DNA from: Nitrososphaerota archaeon
GTDB taxonomy: Archaea; Thermoproteota; Nitrososphaeria; Nitrososphaerales; Nitrosopumilaceae
Assembly (NCBI GenBank): GCA_016200035.1
Contig: JACQFM010000016.1
Span: 1-25,955, forward strand
Direction of reading: 5' to 3'
DNA: 25,955 bases
Shown here: positions 1 through 14,413 of the stretch, in pieces
Layout of the letters: every line of letters starts with the position of its first letter
Position numbering within the stretch: position 1 is the stretch's first letter
Notes under the pieces: model-generated
What the model saw: only the letters and a program-made list of their open reading frames with translations
Told to the model about the DNA's origin: nothing
Database searches by the model: none
Program-made: the position numbers and the translations under genes

Positions 1-1079
<1,079 letters not shown>

Positions 1080-1507: not shown

Positions 1508-2158
1508 TTGTTAGCAATTTTTGATGTCGAGGGAGTTCTGCTTGATGCAGAATTTCTTCCGATCCTTGCTGAAAAAATAAACAAACAAGATGAGATCTGG
1601 GATATAACCAGAAAGGGAATCGAGGGTGTAATAAACTGGGAAGAAGGACTCAAAAAAAGAATTGAGACTCTGAAAGGAATTAGCTACAAGACATGCAAAG
1701 AGGTTGCAGATTCTCTTCCAATCATGACTGGAGCAAAGGAAGCATGTACTGCATTAAGAGCAGCTGGATGGAAACTGCTTGCCGTGTCTGGCGGGTTTTC
1801 CATCATGACAGAACGTCTCAAAAGGGAACTAGATTTAGACTATGTATTTTCAAATGAACTAATCTTCAAGGACGACAAGCTTGACGGCGTTAAGATATCA
1901 GTAGACTCGGACAAGGCCAAGTCAGCAATGATTAAGGTAAAGGAATGGAAGGAACAGAAGAAGGATATTGTAGTAGTTGTTGACGGCGCAAATGACATAA
2001 AATTATTCAATATATGTGGACTTGGTGTTGCATTTAGAGCACAAGATATTGTCAAAGATTTAGCTACAGCGACTCTTGAAGAAAAGGACCTATCACTACT
2101 GATTGGAATAATAAACAGGCATTACGGTACTAAGGTTCAGCTACAAACGGTTGCCTAA
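1508..2158 (+). CDS. serB: Phosphoserine phosphatase (HAD)
   Basis: HAD motif I FDVEGVL, motif II VSGGF, K in SDKAK, motif IV DGAND; SerB-like cap region. Confidence 0.9.
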   Translation: MLAIFDVEGVLLDAEFLPILAEKINKQDEIWDITRKGIEGVINWEEGLKKRIETLKGISYKTCKEVADSLPIMTGAKEACTALRAAGWKLLAVSGGFSIMTERLKRELDLDYVFSNELIFKDDKLDGVKISVDSDKAKSAMIKVKEWKEQKKDIVVVVDGANDIKLFNICGLGVAFRAQDIVKDLATATLEEKDLSLLIGIINRHYGTKVQLQTVA

Positions 2159-3955: not shown

Positions 3956-3999
3956 AGATTTTAATATGACATTGAGTCCGTTTTAAAATATTAGGTGAT
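3951..3999 (+). promoter_or_regulatory. BRE/TATA (AGAATAGA-TTTTAATAT) and Shine-Dalgarno (AGGTGAT, 3993-3999) of tusA-cysM
   Basis: Archaeal TATA-like box at 3959-3967. AGGTGAT is complementary to the archaeal 16S 3' tail. Confidence 0.6.
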
Positions 4000-4004
4000 T
4001 TAAT

Positions 4005-4244
4005 ATTTCAGAATTAACTCCAACTAAGACAATTGATGTGAGAGGACTGTTCTGTCCTGAACCAGTGTTTAGGACCAAAATAGAAATTGAAAGGATGACA
4101 GTAGGTAACGTGTTAAAAGTAATCGCAGATGATCCAGCTTCTGAGGAAGATATTTCAAGATGGGTCAATAGAAACGGCCACAAGCTCCTTGAACTAAAAA
4201 AGACTGACAAGGCGTTGGAGTTCACCATAAAAAAGGTGAAGTAA
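4005..4244 (+). CDS. tusA: TusA/SirA-family sulfur carrier, probable non-canonical ATT start
   Basis: TIDVRGLFCPEP (D-x-x-G-x-x-CP-x-P) and VIADDP motifs. The track start (GTG 4038) cuts the motif. The frame is closed by TGA at 3996-3998, and ATT at 4005 follows a strong SD. Confidence 0.9.
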   Translation: MSELTPTKTIDVRGLFCPEPVFRTKIEIERMTVGNVLKVIADDPASEEDISRWVNRNGHKLLELKKTDKALEFTIKKVK

Positions 4245-4247
4245 TAT

Positions 4248-5246
4248 GTGGCAACCAAGGTCGTAGGCGATATCAAGACCCTAAAGAAAATTGGGAATAC
4301 ACCACTTGTAAAACTAAACTCACTTACCTCAGCTAACGTCACAGCATATGCAAAACTTGAATCATACAACCCATTTGGGTCTGTAAAGGATAGAGCAGCC
4401 TATTGGATGATAAAAGATGGAGAAGAGCGCGGTGTTCTAAAAAAGGGCGAAAGCATAATCATAGAGCCAACTTCGGGCAATACCGGTATAGCTCTGGCAG
4501 GAATAGCAAATCTACTTGGATACAAAGTGGAAATTGTAATACCAGAAAAGGCCAGTGATGAAACAAAGAAAATAATCGAGTCTCTTGGTGCAAAATTATT
4601 TCAGACAAGTGACGATCTGTGCCCTAAAGTGGGCGCAGGAACAGACCAAAGTATAGCACTTGCAAGAGCAATATCATCAGCGCGACCAGACAAGTACTAC
4701 ATGCCAAACCAGTACGAGAATGAGGCAAACTTTATGGGTCATTACAAAGGCACAGGACCAGAGATCTGGAAACAAACTGAGGGAAAAGTAACTCATTTTT
4801 TGACAGGTGTTGGTACAGGGGGCACAATAACTGGCATCTCAGCTTATCTTAAGGAACAAAATCCATCTGTTAGAACAATAGCTGTTCAGCCACAGCAAAA
4901 TCATCTAATTCAGGGATTGCGTAATTTTGTTGAGTCAGATAAACAAGTTTTATTCAAAAAGCGGGAAAACCTAGTTGATGATTGGCTAACAATAACAAAC
5001 GATGAAGCTTTTGCGGCAGTAGTCAGGTTGTTTGAGAAAGAAAAGCTCCTTGTAGGACCATCTTCTGGCGTCGTGTATGCAGCTATGGAGAAACTTTCTC
5101 TTGATAAGGGATGTGTTGTGGGTATATTTGCAGATGATGGTCGCAAATTCAAGAGCTTATATTCACAACAAAAGGTGTTTACAGAAGAACAATTTGATAA
5201 ATCATTAAAGGAAGCGCTTTATCTGTCTGAAGTTTCCATTCTCTAG
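4248..5246 (+). CDS. cysM: PLP-dependent cysteine synthase family, CysM-like
   Basis: GNTPLV, AKLESYNPFGSVKDR (PLP Lys), PTSGNTG, GVGTGGT, QGLRN (CysM-type Arg) and VGPSSG. Confidence 0.88.
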   Translation: MATKVVGDIKTLKKIGNTPLVKLNSLTSANVTAYAKLESYNPFGSVKDRAAYWMIKDGEERGVLKKGESIIIEPTSGNTGIALAGIANLLGYKVEIVIPEKASDETKKIIESLGAKLFQTSDDLCPKVGAGTDQSIALARAISSARPDKYYMPNQYENEANFMGHYKGTGPEIWKQTEGKVTHFLTGVGTGGTITGISAYLKEQNPSVRTIAVQPQQNHLIQGLRNFVESDKQVLFKKRENLVDDWLTITNDEAFAAVVRLFEKEKLLVGPSSGVVYAAMEKLSLDKGCVVGIFADDGRKFKSLYSQQKVFTEEQFDKSLKEALYLSEVSIL

Positions 5247-6227
5247 TTACTTTTTTTTATTTTCAGAAAGATACTTGTCAACATCAATGCCTGCCATGCA
5301 TCCAAATCCAGCTGCAGTAACTGCCTGCCTATATCTGTGATCGTGTACGTCACCTGCAGCAAAAACTCCTTCCACACTCGTCTTTGTATTTTCTCTTAGT
5401 TTGATGTATCCTTGATCATCAAGCTCAACTTGACCTTTGAAGAGCTTCGTGTTCGGTTCATGCCCTATTGCCACAAAAATTGCTCCTACATCTAGGGCTT
5501 TTCTTTCGTTTGTTACCATATCCTTGATAATCACCTGATTTACTTTATCTGCCCCCTTTATCTCATCAATAACCTTGTTCCAATGAAACCTTATCTTTGG
5601 ATTCTCAAACGCTCGTTCTTGCATCACTTTGCTTGCTCTAAGCTGGTCTCTTCTGTGTACAACATGAATATTTTTGCCAAATTTTGTCAAAAAGATGGCC
5701 TCTTCCATTGCTGTGTCGCCACCTCCAGTAACCACAATCTCCTGATTTCTAAAGAATGGTCCATCGCAGGTTGCACAGTACGAGACTCCTTTGCCTCCAA
5801 ACTCGTGTTCTCCTTTTGCGCCTATTTTTCTAGGATTAGCTCCAGTGCAGATTATTACTGCTTCAGCCTCGTATTCTTCTGATGGTGTGAGCACCTTGAA
5901 GGGTTTGTGTTTGAAATCAACATTGACTACTTCATCATCAACTACTGTGGCACCCATTCTCTCTGTCTGTTTGCGCATTATTGTCATAAGTTCAGGGCCA
6001 AAAATTCCATCACTAAACCCAGGATAATTTTCAACTTCTGTTGTAAGCATAAGTTGTCCTCCTGGCAATATACCAGAAAATATCAAAGTGTCACGTTTTG
6101 CTCTAGCTGTATAAATTGCAGCAGTGTATCCGGCAGGCCCAGAACCTATTATTATTACTTCAAACCTTCGCTTTTTTTCAACAGGCTTCGCCTCTTCTTT
6201 TATCTGAGCTTGCACAGAACCATTCAT
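5247..6227 (-). CDS. trxB: Thioredoxin-disulfide reductase
   Basis: GSGPAG FAD motif, CATCDG redox pair, GGGDTAMEEA, HRRD (NADPH) and AAGDV. Confidence 0.97.
   Translation of the reverse strand: MNGSVQAQIKEEAKPVEKKRRFEVIIIGSGPAGYTAAIYTARAKRDTLIFSGILPGGQLMLTTEVENYPGFSDGIFGPELMTIMRKQTERMGATVVDDEVVNVDFKHKPFKVLTPSEEYEAEAVIICTGANPRKIGAKGEHEFGGKGVSYCATCDGPFFRNQEIVVTGGGDTAMEEAIFLTKFGKNIHVVHRRDQLRASKVMQERAFENPKIRFHWNKVIDEIKGADKVNQVIIKDMVTNERKALDVGAIFVAIGHEPNTKLFKGQVELDDQGYIKLRENTKTSVEGVFAAGDVHDHRYRQAVTAAGFGCMAGIDVDKYLSENKKK
5251..5258 (+). terminator. T8 run, putative archaeal terminator for tusA-cysM, inside the trxB 3' end
   Basis: cysM TAG (5244-5246) abuts the trxB stop (5247-5249) with zero gap. 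The T-run is antisense to the TrxB C-terminal Lys codons. Confidence 0.45.
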
Positions 6228-6245
6228 CTTTGGTATATATTTAAA

Positions 6246-7034
6246 TTATTCACGGTTTGCGACGATCGTATCAAGAAATTGTTGGTGTTTGTTACACAAC
6301 TTTCCTATCTGAATTTGTGAATACAAAAGATCAGCTTGCCAGTGAGCGTTAAAGAGTCTGCATTCTATTGATTCACAGAATGGCTCTCCTGTAAGATAAT
6401 AAATTAGTGCCTGCAACGCATATCCTTTGACAACATCAGCAAGCTTTGAATCATGATATTCAAGATATTTTCCTTTGAACTGATCTTTTATGGAGTCGAT
6501 GTTAAGACCCTGTGTCATCTTGGTGAGTAATGCCAGATAATATTCACGTGGCTTTGCAGGAGCTTCAATAATGCCAGTGGTGGAAATAATTGAGGGGTTG
6601 GAACAAATTACAGCCCTTCCATGATATCGATAATCAGTAAAATCATATGTGCAGGTAAGTTTGTTTGTAAAAGCCAAGTGAAATTTATCTGATTGTAATT
6701 CATTCTCAGGTATTAAGCTTGTAATTATTTTTTGAAATTCAAACCCATCATACATTATGATGTTAGTCTCTTTGGATTCAGTCAGCAATTCTTCTTCCAT
6801 CTTTATTTCTTCATTTGTGGGGTTGTGTTTCTCAAAGGGCCTTTTTGTATCGAAAATCCTACAAGCTGCAAGCTCGTAAGAGACAGCTCCACTTGACGGT
6901 TTGAAAAACCTGAAAACACTTTCTCTTGATTCTACCTTGACGCGAAAATTTTCTTGTATGAATTTGACAAGATCTTCTATTTTTATTTCAGGAACAGAGG
7001 GTTCATCATAAAGATAGACTGTAGAGATCTTCAA
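6246..7034 (-). CDS. Archaemetzincin-like putative metalloprotein (DUF6775-like) lacking HExxH
   Basis: 262-aa ORF. C-terminal C-x4-C...LCNKH resembles the archaemetzincin Cys-rich tail. Family label from recall, not searched. Confidence 0.65.
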   Translation of the reverse strand: MKISTVYLYDEPSVPEIKIEDLVKFIQENFRVKVESRESVFRFFKPSSGAVSYELAACRIFDTKRPFEKHNPTNEEIKMEEELLTESKETNIIMYDGFEFQKIITSLIPENELQSDKFHLAFTNKLTCTYDFTDYRYHGRAVICSNPSIISTTGIIEAPAKPREYYLALLTKMTQGLNIDSIKDQFKGKYLEYHDSKLADVVKGYALQALIYYLTGEPFCESIECRLFNAHWQADLLYSQIQIGKLCNKHQQFLDTIVANRE

Positions 7035-7064
7035 TAATCACAAAAGGAATTACTTGGATATAGT

Positions 7065-7880
7065 TTATCTTCTTAGTTCTTTTATCTTTGCCGCCGTAAT
7101 TTCAGCAGCCTTTTTACCTGAAAGAAGCATCGAACCATAAGTTGGTCCCATTCTTGCTATGCCAAAAGTTTCAGTTACAGACATACCTGCAATCACAAGA
7201 CCAGGATAAATCTCGCCTGTCTTGTGAACCACTCTGTTTTCACCATCGTCAACCCACATTGGATCCATACCCTTCCACTCAACCAACTTTCTGTCTACTA
7301 GTCTTTTTACTGCAACAGAATCATGCCCAGAAGCATCTATTACCATTTTTGATTCTAATGCAACCGGATCAACACACGTTATGTTTCTTGGTAGCGCAGA
7401 GACTGGCATCCAGTTTACAACGACCCCTCTTACTCTACCACTTTTTAGGACAAGATCATCAAATTTTGTTAGATTAAGGAATTTCACACCGGCATCACAA
7501 GCTGCTGCAATCAGTTTTGAGACTGCATGGGGACCAGGTGTAAGATAAAGCCCCTCTGAAACTTTTTTGTATGGAATTCCAAGCTCGTCCCATATCTTTT
7601 GTGCAGGAGCTCTTACAGTAACAGGATTCATCATATATCCACCAAGCCAGTAGCCACCTCCAAGATAGTTGTTTTGTTCTATGATCAAGGTCCTAAATCC
7701 CATAGAAGCAAGCTCCTTTCCTGCAGTAAGGCCTGCTGGTCCAGCACCAATAATTATTACATCAGAATCTGCTCTGTCAACTAGTACTGAGTGGAATTCA
7801 TTTGCAATGGCTCTTGTAATTTCCATCTCGCTAACATCTGCAAAAATTTTTGGTGCTTCATCAACATGTGTACTTTGCAT
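7065..7880 (-). CDS. thi4: Thi4-family thiazole synthase, Cys-type
   Basis: IIGAGPAG, LGGGYWLGG, TCVDP, DASGHD, GMSV and RMGPTYGSMLLSGKKAA. Confidence 0.95.
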   Translation of the reverse strand: MQSTHVDEAPKIFADVSEMEITRAIANEFHSVLVDRADSDVIIIGAGPAGLTAGKELASMGFRTLIIEQNNYLGGGYWLGGYMMNPVTVRAPAQKIWDELGIPYKKVSEGLYLTPGPHAVSKLIAAACDAGVKFLNLTKFDDLVLKSGRVRGVVVNWMPVSALPRNITCVDPVALESKMVIDASGHDSVAVKRLVDRKLVEWKGMDPMWVDDGENRVVHKTGEIYPGLVIAGMSVTETFGIARMGPTYGSMLLSGKKAAEITAAKIKELRR

Positions 7881-7917
7881 AGAAATTCATCCGCTGTCTA
7901 TTACATTAATAGTTTGC

Positions 7918-8961
7918 TTAGCTAACAAACTCTTCTTCAAAGGATTTGATGGAATCTCTGATCTTCATCTTCTTTAGCGGACTTTTGAAAGCATACGCAG
8001 AAATTATTTCGGATTTTGTCAAGTCATTTTTAGATATTGCCATCCTGGCAGCTCTGATAGAATCAACTATTACATTACAACCATTGGTACTATCATCGGT
8101 CCTCAGGGAGAGGTCCATCTCAATATTAGAACCCAAAAAGCCTTTTGCTTCCATCCAATAATAACTAACTCTAGAACTTCCAAGTTGTTCTGCATATTCA
8201 GTTGTTCCAGCAGTTGACCTAAACATGTATGGTGCCTCAACCGATATAGATTCTGTTTTTATCTTACGTTTTTTTTCTCTAAGCTCTTCGGCCATTGTGT
8301 TTTGTGTATCTGCATTTCCTCCTACGTCAAGCTGATATGCTTTTTGGATCTTGATTCCTCGATTTGTCATAAACTCTATCATTCCACGATGAAAGGCTGT
8401 TCCACCAAATTGACTCATCAGGTCATCTCCCAAGATCATTAATCCCTTAGACTCAAAAGTCGATTTTATTTGCGGATTTATGATCTTGGATGATGTTGCA
8501 TTAAAAAACGAACAACCCGCTTCTAGAGCTGCTTTTGAATACATCTCTCCACTTCTATCCATTCCAGAAGATATTAGACTTAGAAGAAAATCAGGCTTGA
8601 TCCTCTTCAATGAATTTACAAATTCATTATATTTTACCGATTTTAGCTGGCCATGATTTAAAACATGACTAGGCCTTGGATCTTCGGCAATACCTGGCTG
8701 TACGGTCAAGTCACCAAAACCGCCATTGGGTTCCGTTACGAGTTCTTTAATTTTCTTACCAACTTTGACAGAGTCTACATCAAAAACACCAACCAAATTA
8801 ATGTCATTTATTGTAAAACCGCCAACTCTTGGATGCCACAGGCCATCATTGGAATTTTTATAAAATTGAAACCCTTTGATCAGCGTACTTGCGACATTTC
8901 CCATACCAGCTATTGCAATGGTAATTTTATCTGGCATGTTTTTTTTCTTGTCAGTGATCAT
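7918..8961 (-). CDS. ino1: myo-inositol-1-phosphate synthase family protein (divergent)
   Basis: GMGNVAS Rossmann motif, FDVD..KVG, GDDLMSQFGGT, YQLDVGGN, DS.N...IVD.IRAA and FKSP. Alternative start at MPDK (8937). Confidence 0.8.
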   Translation of the reverse strand: MITDKKKNMPDKITIAIAGMGNVASTLIKGFQFYKNSNDGLWHPRVGGFTINDINLVGVFDVDSVKVGKKIKELVTEPNGGFGDLTVQPGIAEDPRPSHVLNHGQLKSVKYNEFVNSLKRIKPDFLLSLISSGMDRSGEMYSKAALEAGCSFFNATSSKIINPQIKSTFESKGLMILGDDLMSQFGGTAFHRGMIEFMTNRGIKIQKAYQLDVGGNADTQNTMAEELREKKRKIKTESISVEAPYMFRSTAGTTEYAEQLGSSRVSYYWMEAKGFLGSNIEMDLSLRTDDSTNGCNVIVDSIRAARMAISKNDLTKSEIISAYAFKSPLKKMKIRDSIKSFEEEFVS

Positions 8962-8981
8962 TTAACTCTTTTCTGAGTTAA
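8962..8981. promoter_or_regulatory. 7-bp inverted repeat TTAACTC-N6-GAGTTAA abutting the ino1 start
   Basis: Arms at 8962-8968 and 8975-8981 are exact reverse complements. Confidence 0.35.
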
Positions 8982-9027
8982 TCTAATTAGCTGAAACTAA
9001 ATGATTTGAAATATAATTTTGTCAAAA

Positions 9028-9063
9028 ATGAACAAAAGTTTGCAAAGGAACAGATTTGTTCAT
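9028..9063. promoter_or_regulatory. 9-bp inverted repeat ATGAACAAA-N18-TTTGTTCAT upstream of the sulfite reductase promoter
   Basis: Arms at 9028-9036 and 9055-9063 are exact. The spacer contains the palindrome TTTGCAAA. Confidence 0.4.
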
Positions 9064-9097
9064 CTTTATCATTACATTTAGCTAAAATTCCCCTATT

Positions 9098-9110
9098 CAA
9101 AAATTTATAT
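9098..9110 (+). promoter_or_regulatory. BRE/TATA (CAAAAA-TTTATAT) of the sulfite reductase-rhodanese operon
   Basis: Consensus archaeal TATA about 28 nt upstream of TTG 9138, consistent with a near-leaderless transcript. Confidence 0.6.
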
Positions 9111-9137
9111 GCCTTCCGACGCGAGATTACGCGTAAG

Positions 9138-10940
9138 TTGAGTAAGACTAGCCTTAGTCAATCTAAAGGTGATTTGCCAAAACACAAGATAAATTGGGGC
9201 AGACTAGAGGAAGCTGAAAAATTTGCAGAGACTGTAAAACTTTTCCGTCAAGGTAAGCTAAGTCATGATGATTTCAGACGATTTCGATTACAACACGGTG
9301 CATATGGTAGTCGAATGACTGACAATTACAGCATGGTAAGAATAAAAATTCCCGCGGGTGAGATTCATCCAGAACAACTTGAGAGAATAGCTCAGCTGAG
9401 TGAAGCGTTTTCAATAGGTAGTGCTCATGTCTCCACTAGACAAAATTTCCAACTGCACTGGGTGTTTTTAGAAGATGTATCAGAAATTATGCGAGGTCTA
9501 GCAGAGGTAGGACTTACAACGAGAGAAGCGTGTGGCAATACAGTAAGAAATGTCATGTGTAGTCCTCTTGCTGGCGTATGTCCAGACGAAGATTTCGATC
9601 CTACTCCATATGCTATAGCTACTGCAAGATTTCTTTTGCGAAATCCACTAAACCAAGCCCTGCCGCGAAAATTCAAAATCAATTTTACATGTTGTGAAAA
9701 ACACGGAATGGCACGCATTGCTGACATTGGTTTGATACCTAAAAGGACCGAGGTTGATGGAAAGGCACAGAACGGATTCAAAGTATTTTTGGGCGGCGGA
9801 TTGGGGGCACAATCATTTATAGGATATCAGCTTGAAGAATTCACAGCCGAGGAAGACTTGGCATATACGACAATAGCTGTTCTTAGGATATTTGATAGAA
9901 TGGGCAATCGTGAGAATATGGCCAGAAACAGGATGAGGTATCTTGTTAACGAGATGGGATGGGAGAAGTTCCAAAAACTAGTGTTAAAGGAAAGAGCAAT
10001 AGTAAGAGCAACACAATCTGTACTAGTAAAGCTTGAAGTAGATAAGACCCCTGATGCGTTGCAAAGAGTTACAATTAGCTCAGACCGTCCAGCTCCACCG
10101 GATGGATTTTCTAGATGGGCTAAAAGTAATACTGTCAAACAAAAACAGAGTGGATACAGTGCAGTATTTCTGACTTTGGAGTCTGGCGATATGACTGCAA
10201 ACCAACTAAGGGTGGCGGCCCAGATAGCAAGAGAATTCTCTGCGGAAGGAAAAGCAAGAAATGGTTTCACACAAGACATTGTATTTAGATGGGTAAGAGA
10301 CGAGGATCTTACAGGATTATATTCCAAGCTCTTAGAGGTTGGACTTGCAAGTCCTGGAGCTCTAACCATGGCATCAGTGGTAGGATGCACAGGAACTGCT
10401 TCATGCAATCTTGCATTGACAAATTCTCACAGACTGTCAAAGGAGATACAGAGAAAATTCATTGAGCTTAAGCTTGATATGGATGATTCATTGCGTGACT
10501 CTACAATAAAGATAAGTGGTTGTCCCAACTCATGTGGTCAGCACGGGATCGCAACAATTGGATTTTATGGTGGCGGTGGAAGGATGGGAAAAAACATGTA
10601 CCCACTGTATATGATGTCACTAGGGGGACGCGCAGATGAACAAGCAATGCTTGGTCTGAATTGCACGAGAGTTCCTGCAAGGAGAGTCATACCAGTAATT
10701 TTAAAAATAATTGATATTTTCAAATCTGAAAAAAGAGACGGCGAAACACTAGATTCATGGATACACAGAGTAATAGATAGAAACGGTGGTCCAAATGTCA
10801 AGTCTATAAACGACATTAAGGAATTGTTAAAACCGCTACTAACTATTCCATCCGTTGAAGAAGACAAAGACTTCTATATCGACTATGGAAGCGATGGAGG
10901 TTATCATGCAAGAACAGGAAGGGGAGAATGTGCTGCTTGA
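9138..10940 (+). CDS. Siroheme/[4Fe-4S] ferredoxin-dependent nitrite/sulfite reductase (probably assimilatory sulfite reductase)
   Basis: RLQHGAYG, HVSTRQNFQLH, ACGNTVRN, CTGTASCNLA (C-x5-C), SGCPNSCG (C-x3-C) and C-terminal GECAA. Start moved from 9006 to TTG 9138 on the basis of TATA position. Confidence 0.93.
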   Translation: MSKTSLSQSKGDLPKHKINWGRLEEAEKFAETVKLFRQGKLSHDDFRRFRLQHGAYGSRMTDNYSMVRIKIPAGEIHPEQLERIAQLSEAFSIGSAHVSTRQNFQLHWVFLEDVSEIMRGLAEVGLTTREACGNTVRNVMCSPLAGVCPDEDFDPTPYAIATARFLLRNPLNQALPRKFKINFTCCEKHGMARIADIGLIPKRTEVDGKAQNGFKVFLGGGLGAQSFIGYQLEEFTAEEDLAYTTIAVLRIFDRMGNRENMARNRMRYLVNEMGWEKFQKLVLKERAIVRATQSVLVKLEVDKTPDALQRVTISSDRPAPPDGFSRWAKSNTVKQKQSGYSAVFLTLESGDMTANQLRVAAQIAREFSAEGKARNGFTQDIVFRWVRDEDLTGLYSKLLEVGLASPGALTMASVVGCTGTASCNLALTNSHRLSKEIQRKFIELKLDMDDSLRDSTIKISGCPNSCGQHGIATIGFYGGGGRMGKNMYPLYMMSLGGRADEQAMLGLNCTRVPARRVIPVILKIIDIFKSEKRDGETLDSWIHRVIDRNGGPNVKSINDIKELLKPLLTIPSVEEDKDFYIDYGSDGGYHARTGRGECAA

Positions 10941-11740
10941 GTGCAGAAAAGACTACGCGTATTACAATAGATGCAGATTCACTTAGGTCTGAAATAAGAG
11001 ACAAGAGTGTACGTGTACTAGATGTAAGAAAGGAAGAAGACTTTAAACAAAATCACATTCCAAGTGCAGTAAATCTTCCTCTTGCAACTCTGCTCTCAGA
11101 TGACAGTCCACAAAAGGTGTTACAACTAACCCAGTCATTTGGAATCGATGACGAAACTCCAGTTGTAGTTTACGATGACACATTTGGAGCGCTTGCTTCC
11201 AGAGTCGCATGGACACTCCAATATATTGGCCATCAGAATGTTTCGCTTTTAGGCATTACATATGGAACTTGGAAGAAGATGGGTCTTGAAACAAGTGCAG
11301 AACAACCTTCATTTGCTAAAAAAAATCACTCACTGAAAATAAGACCAGAAATTCTTGCAACCGTAGATTACTTGGAATCCGTGAAAGGAAAAAACGGAAC
11401 CATTCTTATTGATAACCGAGAAAGACTAAATTATCTAGAAAATCACATCCCAGGAGCAATCAACCTTCCCTATAGAATGCTAGCATCTCCTGAAAACATA
11501 TTGAGACCAAAAGAAGAACTCAGGCGACTAATCCAGAACAGAAACATTCCACTTGGGGTTGAAACGATAACATACTGTGGTAGTGTAGGCACACTTTCAG
11601 GACTGGCTTACTATGCACTAAAATCTACAGGCATGGAAAACGTGAAACTCTATGTGCGTTCCTTTAAAGAATGGAAGACACTACAAAAACCAGTTGATGG
11701 CCAAAAAGACGCACACTATTGGGATCTTTCAGCAGAATAA
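10937..11740 (+). CDS. Tandem-domain rhodanese/sulfurtransferase
   Basis: LDVR...HIPSA, VVYDD, IDNR..HIPGA and active-site loop YCGSVGT. TTG start overlaps the reductase TGA (TTGA, 10937-10940). Confidence 0.92.
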   Translation: MSAEKTTRITIDADSLRSEIRDKSVRVLDVRKEEDFKQNHIPSAVNLPLATLLSDDSPQKVLQLTQSFGIDDETPVVVYDDTFGALASRVAWTLQYIGHQNVSLLGITYGTWKKMGLETSAEQPSFAKKNHSLKIRPEILATVDYLESVKGKNGTILIDNRERLNYLENHIPGAINLPYRMLASPENILRPKEELRRLIQNRNIPLGVETITYCGSVGTLSGLAYYALKSTGMENVKLYVRSFKEWKTLQKPVDGQKDAHYWDLSAE

Positions 11741-12988: not shown

Positions 12989-14413
12989 ATGTCAAGCGGC
13001 GGGGCAAGGAAGATCGAAATAGAAGGGATTTCTCCTTTCAAATTGTCCTCCGGTGTCTTTGAGGTTCAGATTGCGATTTGTCAAAGTAAGCCATCTGAAG
13101 AAGAAATTGCAAAAAAAAGTTTTCCATCATTATGGAAAGATGATTTCCATCTAAGAGTCAAGGATTCAAAATTTGCTCAAGTGCTTGGCGCTGATAAAAA
13201 TCCAATCCCCGAATTAGTTTTTCAATTGGGTAGAGCATGGATAGTAATTACTGATCATTTTTCTTCAATTCACGCTGTTTTTGAAACTGAGGTCTCTCCA
13301 CCTGTTGTTAAGAAAGTAGTTGGGACCTATGAACCGAAACCTCAAAGAGCAGAACTAGCGCCTAGACCTACACGAGGAACTGAAGGTCCACCAGGTCCGC
13401 CTGGACCGAGGGGACGGACAGGTCCACAAGGTCCTCCAGGCGATAAAGGCCCACCAGGTCTACAAGGTCAACGTGGAGAAGATGGTCCACTAGGTCCATC
13501 AGGCGACAAAGGTCACTCAGGGCCGCCAGGAGACAAGGGTGAACCTGGTCCAAGAGGTACGCCAGGTGATAAAGGTGACAAAGGTGACAAGGGAGAGCAA
13601 GGTCCACGTGGAGACAAAGGATTAACAGGTGATAAGGGCCCCCCAGGAGACAAGGGACCAAGAGGCGATAAAGGCCCACCAGGTGACAAGGGAGACAAAG
13701 GCGACAAGGGAGACAAAGGCGACAAAGGTCTAACTGGCGATATCGGTCTACCAGGCGATAAAGGTCCGACTGGTCCACCAGGTCCGTCTGGTGACAAAGG
13801 CATCATGGGACCACCTGGAGAAAAAGGAATCAAAGGTCCACCAGGAGCTGCAGGAGATAAAGGAGAGAGAGGTCCACAAGGCCCACAGGGAGAAAAAGGT
13901 CTTACAGGTCCACAAGGTTCGTCAGGTGACAAGGGTCCACAAGGTCCACAAGGTCCTCCAGGAGAGAAAGGTCTAACTGGAGTTCCAGGTCAGCAGGGTG
14001 ATAGGGGTCCAAGGGGAATGCCAGGTCCATCAGGTGAACAGGGTCCAAGAGGACTTCAGGGTCCACCAGGTGATAAGGGTCCAGGTGGTCCACAAGGTCC
14101 ACAAGGTGAAAGAGGTCCACAAGGCCCGCAAGGTACACCAGGCGAACGCGGTCCACAAGGAATCCAAGGGTTGCAGGGAGAACGAGGTCCATCAGGTCCA
14201 CAAGGTTCATCAGGTGACAAGGGTCCACAAGGTCCACAAGGTCCACCAGGTGAACAAGGGCCAAGAGGGCCGCCAGGTCCACCAGGTGATAAAGGCCCTA
14301 CTGGCTTTTCAGAACAAGAAAGAGCACTTCTAACTCAATTGCTAGAATTACTTGTCGCAAAAAATGTTATAACAACAGAACAGCAAATTAAATTACTCAG
14401 TTTTCTGTACTAG
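12989..14413 (+). CDS. Collagen-like protein: 129-aa N-domain, 104 Gly-X-Y triplets, 33-aa Leu-rich C-terminus
   Basis: Residues 130-441 are uninterrupted G-X-Y. No signal peptide or long hydrophobic segment is visible. Confidence 0.95.
13376..14311 (+). repeat. 9-nt-period collagen coding repeat, with a 60-nt duplicated block and a (GDK)5 tandem
   Basis: 13907-13966 and 14195-14254 match at 56/60 nt. GGNGACAAR occurs five times in tandem at 13682-13726. Confidence 0.9.

Follow-up and report, generated by a model that had tools for sequence, protein, structure and literature searches.

How does sulfur travel from sulfite reductase to cysteine synthase in ammonia-oxidizing archaea (AOA), as free sulfide or bound to proteins? 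The question is raised by a 25,955-nt stretch of DNA from a Nitrososphaerota archaeon (GenBank assembly GCA_016200035.1, contig JACQFM010000016.1, positions 1 to 25,955 of the forward strand; hereafter the window), which belongs to a genome bin of 1.2 Mb that is 79.5% complete. The nearest named homologues of its proteins are found in Nitrosotalea and other Nitrosopumilaceae, that is, in AOA. In this window, the genes for sulfite reduction and for cysteine synthesis are each paired with the gene of a small sulfur carrier, which suggests that sulfur could be transferred from protein to protein with no free toxic sulfide. We tentatively propose that a protein-bound persulfide relay, running from a sulfite reductase (SiR) through rhodanese and TusA to a CysM-type synthase, may be the sulfur-assimilation core of AOA.

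Two conserved gene pairs

The proposed relay involves four genes, identified as follows (the synthase depends on pyridoxal phosphate, PLP):

4005-4244, plus strand: tusA, sulfur carrier of 79 aa (PF01206, 91.8 bits against a cut-off of 28.6)
4248-5246, plus strand: CysM-type PLP beta-replacement enzyme of 332 aa (family scans, orthologue alignment, AlphaFold2 (AF2) model and Foldseek)
9138-10940, plus strand: assimilatory NirA/SirA-type SiR of 600 aa (domains PF01077 and PF03460, each matching twice)
10928-11740, plus strand: tandem-domain rhodanese of 270 aa (PF00581, matching twice)

The cysM gene starts with a GTG at 4248, 3 nt past the tusA stop. A preliminary description of the window had pointed to this tight coupling, and the pair turned out to be widely kept: of 53 loci of relatives with a CysM orthologue, 49 have tusA directly 5' of cysM in the same orientation, at a median distance of about 3 nt (47 of 51 when two loci from the unpublished genomes G003 and G141 are left aside). 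Of the four exceptions, one is a contig end and the other three are deep-branching lineages. Regarding the second pair, the genes of SiR and rhodanese adjoin or overlap in 29 of 30 loci, and an independent scan showed this for 15 of 15 AOA loci. Such an arrangement of both pairs is conserved far beyond chance. We predict that the rhodanese gene is translationally coupled to the reductase gene. The TTGA overlap described earlier does exist (TTG at 10937), but the ATG at 10928, giving a 13-nt overlap, is the likelier rhodanese start, because the orthologues mostly begin with MCC.

A conserved cysteine at the C-terminus of the sulfite reductase

The best fold match of SiR is NirA from Mycobacterium tuberculosis (1zj8), and its AF2 model has a mean predicted local distance difference test (pLDDT) value of 93.4. 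Among 50 diverse homologues (34-61% identity), the cluster and siroheme cysteines C423, C462 and C466 are invariant and C417 is nearly so. The protein scores below the NCBIfam cut-offs (227.8 against 523 bits); its substrate is probably sulfite rather than nitrite, judging from the linkage with rhodanese and TusA and from the presence in relatives of CysH, the adenylyl sulfate/phosphoadenylyl sulfate (APS/PAPS) reductase.

Solved structures of nitrite reductase (NiR) and NirA stop about 55 residues short of the SiR C-terminus. The SiR ends in a 55-aa extension that closes with GECAA and includes Cys598 (codon 10929-10931). This tail is invariant in the 29 AOA orthologues examined (29/29), even where the N-terminus of the overlapping rhodanese differs, and Glu597 and Cys598 are invariant in the 50 diverse homologues, just like the cluster-binding cysteines. 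A whole-library search revealed an xEC motif in 115 of 135 full-length cluster representatives, reaching far beyond archaea into many phyla. The motif is terminal in 64 of them, with exactly two residues after the Cys in 51 of the 64; in the remaining 51 representatives with xEC, a helical domain of about 140 aa comes next, and some of these proteins also end in a TusA domain.

It had been stated earlier that some bacterial sulfite reductases are fused to TusA-like domains, and this was borne out: 30 of the 150 nearest cluster representatives are SiR-linker-TusA fusions, with named examples in Nitrospirota and loci in Poribacteria and Nitrospinaceae. No SiR-rhodanese fusion was found among the same 150. 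The domain that separates GEC from TusA lacks a conserved Cys and gives a weak HEPN-like match. Our literature searches on SiR-TusA fusions found nothing specific. Besides, most bacterial homologues of SiR carry the helical domain of about 140 aa right after GEC (loci L094-L156; proteins P0093, P0124 and P0143).

A CysM-type synthase with an additional cysteine loop

The synthase gene is the sole member of the CysK/CysM family in the window's genome. The PLP-binding Lys47 (codon 4386-4388, within GSVKDR) and the TSGNTG loop (T75-G80) are invariant in 27 orthologues, and in our tree the enzyme groups with CysM and not with CysK (support of 100/97). The AF2 model (mean pLDDT 87.8) superposes best in Foldseek on the CysM enzymes of E. 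coli/Salmonella and M. tuberculosis, with root-mean-square deviations (rmsd) of 2.1-2.3 A. The enzyme scores below all curated equivalog cut-offs: TIGR01138 (267.2 against 394.2), NF008735 (247.9 against 413) and the cysKM subfamily (274.2 against 344.15).

Residues 222-226 read QGLRN, and in the alignments Arg225 (codon 4920-4922) falls opposite Arg210 of E. coli CysM and, with no gap introduced, opposite residue 220 of the M. tuberculosis enzyme (3dwi), so that the equivalence proposed from the motif was confirmed. M. tuberculosis CysM and the O-phosphoserine sulfhydrylase (OPSS) of Aeropyrum were compared through the output of the PDB search. A functional role of Arg220 in M. tuberculosis CysM was reportedly the subject of Agren et al. 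in 2008. In E. coli CysM, the Arg210 segment enlarges the pocket for thiosulfate or larger donors, while CysK has Gly-Ala-Gly at this place (PMC9547175).

We also found an insertion, DDLCPxVGxGTDQ, whose Cys125 (codon 4620-4622) is invariant in all AOA CysM orthologues aligned. E. coli CysK and CysM are devoid of this DDLCP loop, which is flexible in the AF2 model (pLDDT below 50). The LCP loop and the Arg also occur together in a very abundant bacterial family of CysM-rhodanese fusions, and both Pfam domains are present in 118 of the 120 best clusters of that family. Two of its members, L122 and L142 (Planctomycetota), stand in divergent orientation next to a sulfite reductase of the GEC type. 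A single TusA-CysM fusion (P0375) was found as well. Literature searches on CysM-rhodanese fusions gave nothing specific. Two further bacterial CysM-like genes (L144, 9834-10844; L152, 11647-12615) lie next to or near a GEC-type reductase; in these, Lys-His (GLKH/GWKH) replaces Arg-Asn and the Cys loop is missing, which would make them, within the CysM part of the tree, a third subtype.

As for the acceptor, none of the genomes of 41 relatives, many of which are closed, has a cysE (TIGR01172) that reaches the cut-off (best score 47.5 bits against 210.65), while 8 of 14 control genomes do. O-acetylserine is hence an unlikely acceptor, and O-phosphoserine becomes plausible, as cysE is absent and serB lies upstream. 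The phosphorylated serine pathway, of which serB is a marker, is the source of O-phosphoserine. Another entry of sulfur, by transsulfuration or a MetY-type sulfhydrylase, was considered and is unlikely: PF01053 gave weak, partial matches only.

Rhodanese, TusA and their possible partners

The active cysteine of the rhodanese, Cys217 (codon 11576-11578), lies in the C-terminal domain within CGSVGTLSG, a loop that is invariant in the orthologues. Among solved structures, the nearest are tandem sulfurtransferases for thiosulfate and 3-mercaptopyruvate (1uar and 1e0c). TusA, present as a single protein in the window's genome, has its active Cys17 (codon 4053-4055) in GLFCPEP, conserved in all orthologues aligned, and scores below the E. 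coli-type equivalog NF001423 (60.8 against 78). A deep-branching relative presents a TusA-rhodanese pair and, immediately 5' of a SiR-like gene, a TusA-like one.

Usual bacterial partners of TusA were not found. MoaE and DsrE/TusBCD gave no hit in the window's genome or in four genomes that are 99% complete, and for MnmA we obtained only partial PP-loop matches of at most 41 bits in the window's genome and relatives. Since these partners were not found, we rejected the idea that TusA works solely for the molybdenum cofactor (Moco) or for bacterial-type tRNA thiolation.

We also searched for a thiocarboxylate system of the CysO type. Neither CysO nor JAMM is encoded in the window, and the genome's sole ThiS-family match lies at the N-terminus of a 257-aa fusion on another contig. 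With no ThiS, E1 or JAMM genes linked to the cluster, we ruled out this route, in line with the preliminary description, which had inferred a donor other than a ubiquitin-like thiocarboxylate. The fusion itself (L037; contig C90 of genome G000, 230-1003, minus strand) has a ThiS/MoaD-like domain ending in IHGGG as its N-terminal part. It is not expected to be a molybdopterin synthase subunit, because MoaE was found neither in the window's genome nor in four near-complete Nitrosopumilaceae.

Neighboring genes and gene starts

According to the list of open reading frames (ORFs) and the family scans, the gene order from 5' to 3' is serB, cofE, PHP hydrolase, tusA, the CysK/CysM-family gene, trxB (minus strand), DUF6775 (minus), thi4 (minus), inositol-phosphate synthase, the NirA-type reductase and the tandem rhodanese. 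The three neighbors related to the subject are the following:

1508-2158, plus strand: serB, phosphoserine phosphatase (TIGR00338, 162.3 bits against a cut-off of 144)
5247-6227, minus strand: trxB, thioredoxin-disulfide reductase (TIGR01292, 420.8 bits against 343)
7065-7880, minus strand: thi4, thiazole synthase of a type annotated as sulfide-dependent (TIGR00292, 226 bits against 148)

All three had been reported at these places before, and all pass their NCBIfam cut-offs. The upstream order serB-cofE-(PHP)-tusA is kept in relatives. In the window, trxB converges with cysM and abuts its stop, and it lies downstream of cysM in the same convergent orientation in most relatives' loci. In genome G014, thi4 directly follows the rhodanese gene, and Thi4 could be another client of the carried sulfur.

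Three of the gene starts deserve comment. Between the in-frame stop at 3996 and the GTG at 4038, the tusA frame has no ATG, GTG or TTG; there is an ATT at 4005. Starting at GTG 4038 would remove conserved residues, and the orthologue from G009 begins with MSELG at the position of the ATT, which makes AUU at 4005 the likely start codon. The SiR frame opens at 9006, and we placed its start at the TTG at 9138 because the homologues are 600-601 aa long. The start of the rhodanese gene has been dealt with above.

Two other features of the window were recorded. Between trxB and thi4, at 6246-7034 on the minus strand, a DUF6775/DUF7001 protein is annotated as a 'probable metallopeptidase', and this place is kept in most relatives. 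At 12989-14413, a 474-aa protein presents a long, unbroken, collagen-like Gly-X-Y repeat.

A proposed persulfide relay

From the protein identities, the conserved pairings, the aligned Arg, the conserved cysteines, the fusions and the absence of cysE, all of which are observed, we infer every chemical step of the relay, its acceptor substrate and the order from rhodanese to TusA. Sulfate would be reduced to sulfite by the APS/PAPS reductase present in relatives. The ferredoxin-type SiR would then reduce sulfite, and its C-terminal Cys598 (GEC-x-x-COOH) would capture the sulfur as a persulfide, in a manner resembling that of DsrC with the dissimilatory reductase DsrAB. The sulfane sulfur would be carried by the coupled rhodanese and then by TusA. 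Meanwhile, the CysM-type enzyme would form the PLP aminoacrylate, likely from O-phosphoserine because no serine acetyltransferase was found, and the persulfide would attack this aminoacrylate, possibly by way of the mobile Cys125 loop, to give a carrier-S-S-cysteine disulfide. Finally, thioredoxin and TrxB would reduce the disulfide (TusA-S-S-Cys or TusA-S-S-CysM) and free cysteine would be released. The candidate persulfide stations are thus SiR Cys598, rhodanese Cys217, TusA Cys17 and CysM Cys125.

The chemistry has precedents. Zero-valent sulfur has been reported as a product of assimilatory sulfite reductases (Cao et al. 2026, PMC13188885). According to the same work, cysteine synthases prefer persulfides, and CysK and CysM condense glutathione persulfide with aminoacrylate to GS-S-Cys, a mixed disulfide in need of a cellular reductant. 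The study names neither this reductant nor any protein carrier, and states that assimilation has no known DsrC-like one (PMC13188885).

Given the conserved operons and three independent kinds of fusion (SiR-TusA, CysM-rhodanese and the one TusA-CysM), the locus is best read as encoding a functional chain that links SiR, rhodanese/TusA and CysM. A broader version is, in our estimate, rather unlikely: that a wide SiR subfamily passes zero-valent sulfur to its own C-terminal Cys, from there to a fused or co-transcribed TusA or rhodanese, and on to a Cys-loop CysM, without releasing sulfide. The groups named for this subfamily are AOA, Nitrospirota, Nitrospinaceae, Poribacteria, Methylomirabilota/NC10, Thermus, Acidobacteriota, Chloroflexota and others.

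Weighing the relay against other explanations

Several observations weigh against the relay. In a class-level sampling, the search for a CysM orthologue came out negative for 8 of 68 Nitrosopumilaceae genomes, closed ones among them. Seven genomes, namely G014, L090 (the marine single cell AG-439-M12), G082, G084, G104, G126 and G140, lack cysM or are losing it and yet keep tusA. These relatives are near-complete (93% for G014 and at least 98% for each of G082, G084, G104, G126 and G140). The gene is cleanly gone between tusA and trxB in G014 (L072), L090, G084 (L185) and G104 (L186), while G140 (L184) retains decaying remnants. No CysK/CysM-type gene is left in the cysM-losing genomes, and no MetY/CGS family gene was found in five Nitrosopumilaceae genomes checked, of which G014 is the sole one without cysM. 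All five cysM-less genomes tested retain a single tusA, and G014 and L090 also keep SiR-rhodanese. Because tusA is kept where cysM is lost, TusA must have a function independent of CysM; judging from these gene patterns, it appears to be a hub serving at least one other client, not a dedicated partner of CysM. Further, no tusA lies within 1.5 kb of cysM in three deep-branching orthologues. The two pairs lie about 5-7 kb apart in part of the family, but they are far apart in G005, G010, G011, G015 and G038. The grouping of both pairs within 8 kb, which the preliminary description emphasized, is thus true for the window and part of the family only; as this distance varies, the 8-kb cluster as a whole is best taken as synteny, and the two pairs as the functional units. 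The proteins themselves also give grounds for doubt: the SiR extension is well ordered in AF2, with just its last ten residues less certain (pLDDT 73), and the tree does not resolve the AOA CysM and the rhodanese-fused CysM as sisters, so that their shared Cys loop could be convergent or ancestral. Lastly, free sulfide would be accepted by any CysM-type enzyme too. The earlier proposal that cysteine is made through a TusA-persulfide relay therefore stands in part: the aligned Arg, the lack of cysE, the SiR-TusA fusions and the missing usual TusA partners speak for it, but the idea of a TusA devoted to CysM does not survive.

A rival explanation is an ordinary assimilation through free sulfide, in which sulfide leaves SiR and is used as such by the CysM-type enzyme, a simple sulfhydrylase of O-phosphoserine (or serine). 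Rhodanese and TusA would then serve thiazole synthase, Fe-S assembly, thionucleosides or the detoxification of sulfide and persulfide, and the gene order would merely reflect a shared sulfur regulon and old synteny. The survival of tusA where cysM is deleted or decaying, the presence of thi4 within the cluster, the existence of cysteine desulfurases for other sulfur needs and the fact that every CysK/CysM tested accepts sulfide (PMC13188885) fit this explanation. It does not account, however, for a translational coupling that goes beyond neighborhood in nearly all AOA, for the fact that, in other phyla, enzymes of these types were independently fused to TusA or rhodanese, or for the extra invariant cysteines of SiR and CysM, which have no role in the classical chemistry. 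We consider it unlikely, though a serious contender. Thiosulfate could also be the source of sulfur: rhodanese would split it into sulfite, destined for SiR, and a persulfide, with TusA acting like YeeD/TsuB, or else CysM would make S-sulfocysteine, to be reduced by thioredoxin/TrxB with sulfite passing on to SiR. The TusA-like YeeD is said to work with thiosulfate, the rhodanese has the fold of a thiosulfate sulfurtransferase and trxB adjoins. Likewise, Arg225 corresponds to the E. coli CysM Arg210 linked to thiosulfate use (PMC9547175). On the other hand, a YeeE/YeeD uptake module was ruled out, as no YeeE/TsuA transporter was found in the 79.5%-complete genome and the YeeD-type model scored 22.7 bits where 147.5 are required; relatives possess CysH, an enzyme of sulfate reduction, thiosulfate is the poorest donor for the synthases tested (PMC13188885), and the invariant C-terminal Cys of SiR and the SiR-TusA fusions would be left unexplained. 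We regard this route as improbable. Less probable still is that the PLP enzyme is not the main cysteine synthase and performs another beta-replacement or a desulfhydration that loads TusA, with sulfur flowing from CysM to TusA, opposite to the direction first proposed. Its scores below every NCBIfam equivalog cut-off (e.g., 274 against 344 for cysKM), its dispensability in several free-living lineages and the position of tusA ahead of cysM could be read in this way, but the gene is the only one of its family in the genome, it keeps the full set of synthase motifs, dedicated cysteine desulfurases exist, and rhodanese-fused relatives lie beside sulfite reductase, which points to assimilation.

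Comparison with known sulfur transfer systems

The CysO-CysM-Mec system of M. tuberculosis, which combines O-phosphoserine with a sulfur donor bound to protein, is the established case of carrier-dependent cysteine synthesis. The AOA pair resembles it in having a CysM-type enzyme with the equivalent Arg and a similar fold (3dki, rmsd 2.1 A), a small carrier gene directly upstream, and a proposed arrival of the sulfur on this carrier. In contrast, the AOA carrier is TusA, which would bear a Cys persulfide and not a ThiS-like thiocarboxylate, and neither an E1 (MoeZ) nor a JAMM protease is linked; the product would be a disulfide freed by reduction, instead of a peptide bond freed by hydrolysis. 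M. tuberculosis CysM is not dependent on O-acetylserine (PMC9547175).

With the CysM of E. coli and Salmonella, the AOA enzyme shares the side of the CysK/CysM split, the Arg210 equivalent and the enlarged pocket. As in the persulfide use of CysK/CysM (PMC13188885), persulfide and aminoacrylate would give a mixed disulfide, followed by reduction. It differs from the E. coli and Salmonella enzymes in falling below the equivalog cut-offs, in the lack of cysE, in the additional invariant DDLCP loop and in its proposed donor, which would be a protein and not glutathione persulfide or thiosulfate. Regarding SiR, the likeness to DsrAB-DsrC lies in a siroheme sulfite reductase and a conserved Cys next to a C-terminus that is proposed to take up zero-valent sulfur. 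In AOA, by contrast, this Cys is part of the chain of the assimilatory NirA-type reductase itself, so that we draw an analogy and claim no homology to DsrC; and with a single Cys in the SiR tail, no trisulfide is expected, in contrast to DsrC.

In the rhodanese-TusA-DsrE relays of sulfur oxidizers, sulfane sulfur is reportedly passed on as Cys persulfides that feed sulfur oxidation. No DsrE-family protein was found in the window's genome or the four relatives searched, unlike in those relays, and the end point here would be the synthesis of cysteine. The closest genomic precedent concerns the ThiS/MoaD-JAB-E1-SirA(TusA)-sulfite reductase neighborhoods, for which a hand-over of sulfite-derived sulfur to a carrier was predicted and in which a TusA-family protein (SirA) is always present (Iyer, Burroughs and Aravind 2006, PMC1779556). 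The AOA cluster differs from them by the absence of ThiS, E1 and JAB, which would leave rhodanese and TusA as the sole carriers, and by a sulfhydrylase of the CysM type instead of the MetY type.

Significance for sulfur assimilation

Our literature searches found no paper on cysteine synthesis in AOA, including the TusA-CysM pair, nor any that describes persulfide-only carriers and the conserved extra Cys of both AOA enzymes. What appears to be new here, on the basis of the alignments, is the Cys tail of SiR and the Cys loop that CysM shares with the CysM-rhodanese fusions. The cluster supplies candidates for the parts that are missing in the persulfide chemistry described recently (PMC13188885): a reductase Cys, rhodanese and TusA as carriers, a Cys-loop CysM as acceptor and a neighboring TrxB as reductant. 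AOA are among the most abundant microbes of oceans and soils, and fusions of the same components occur in many bacterial phyla. A result obtained in one organism would hence inform a widespread, possibly major mode of sulfur assimilation. If the broader version of the relay were true, sulfur would be assimilated without free sulfide in mostly aerobic organisms, major nitrifiers included.

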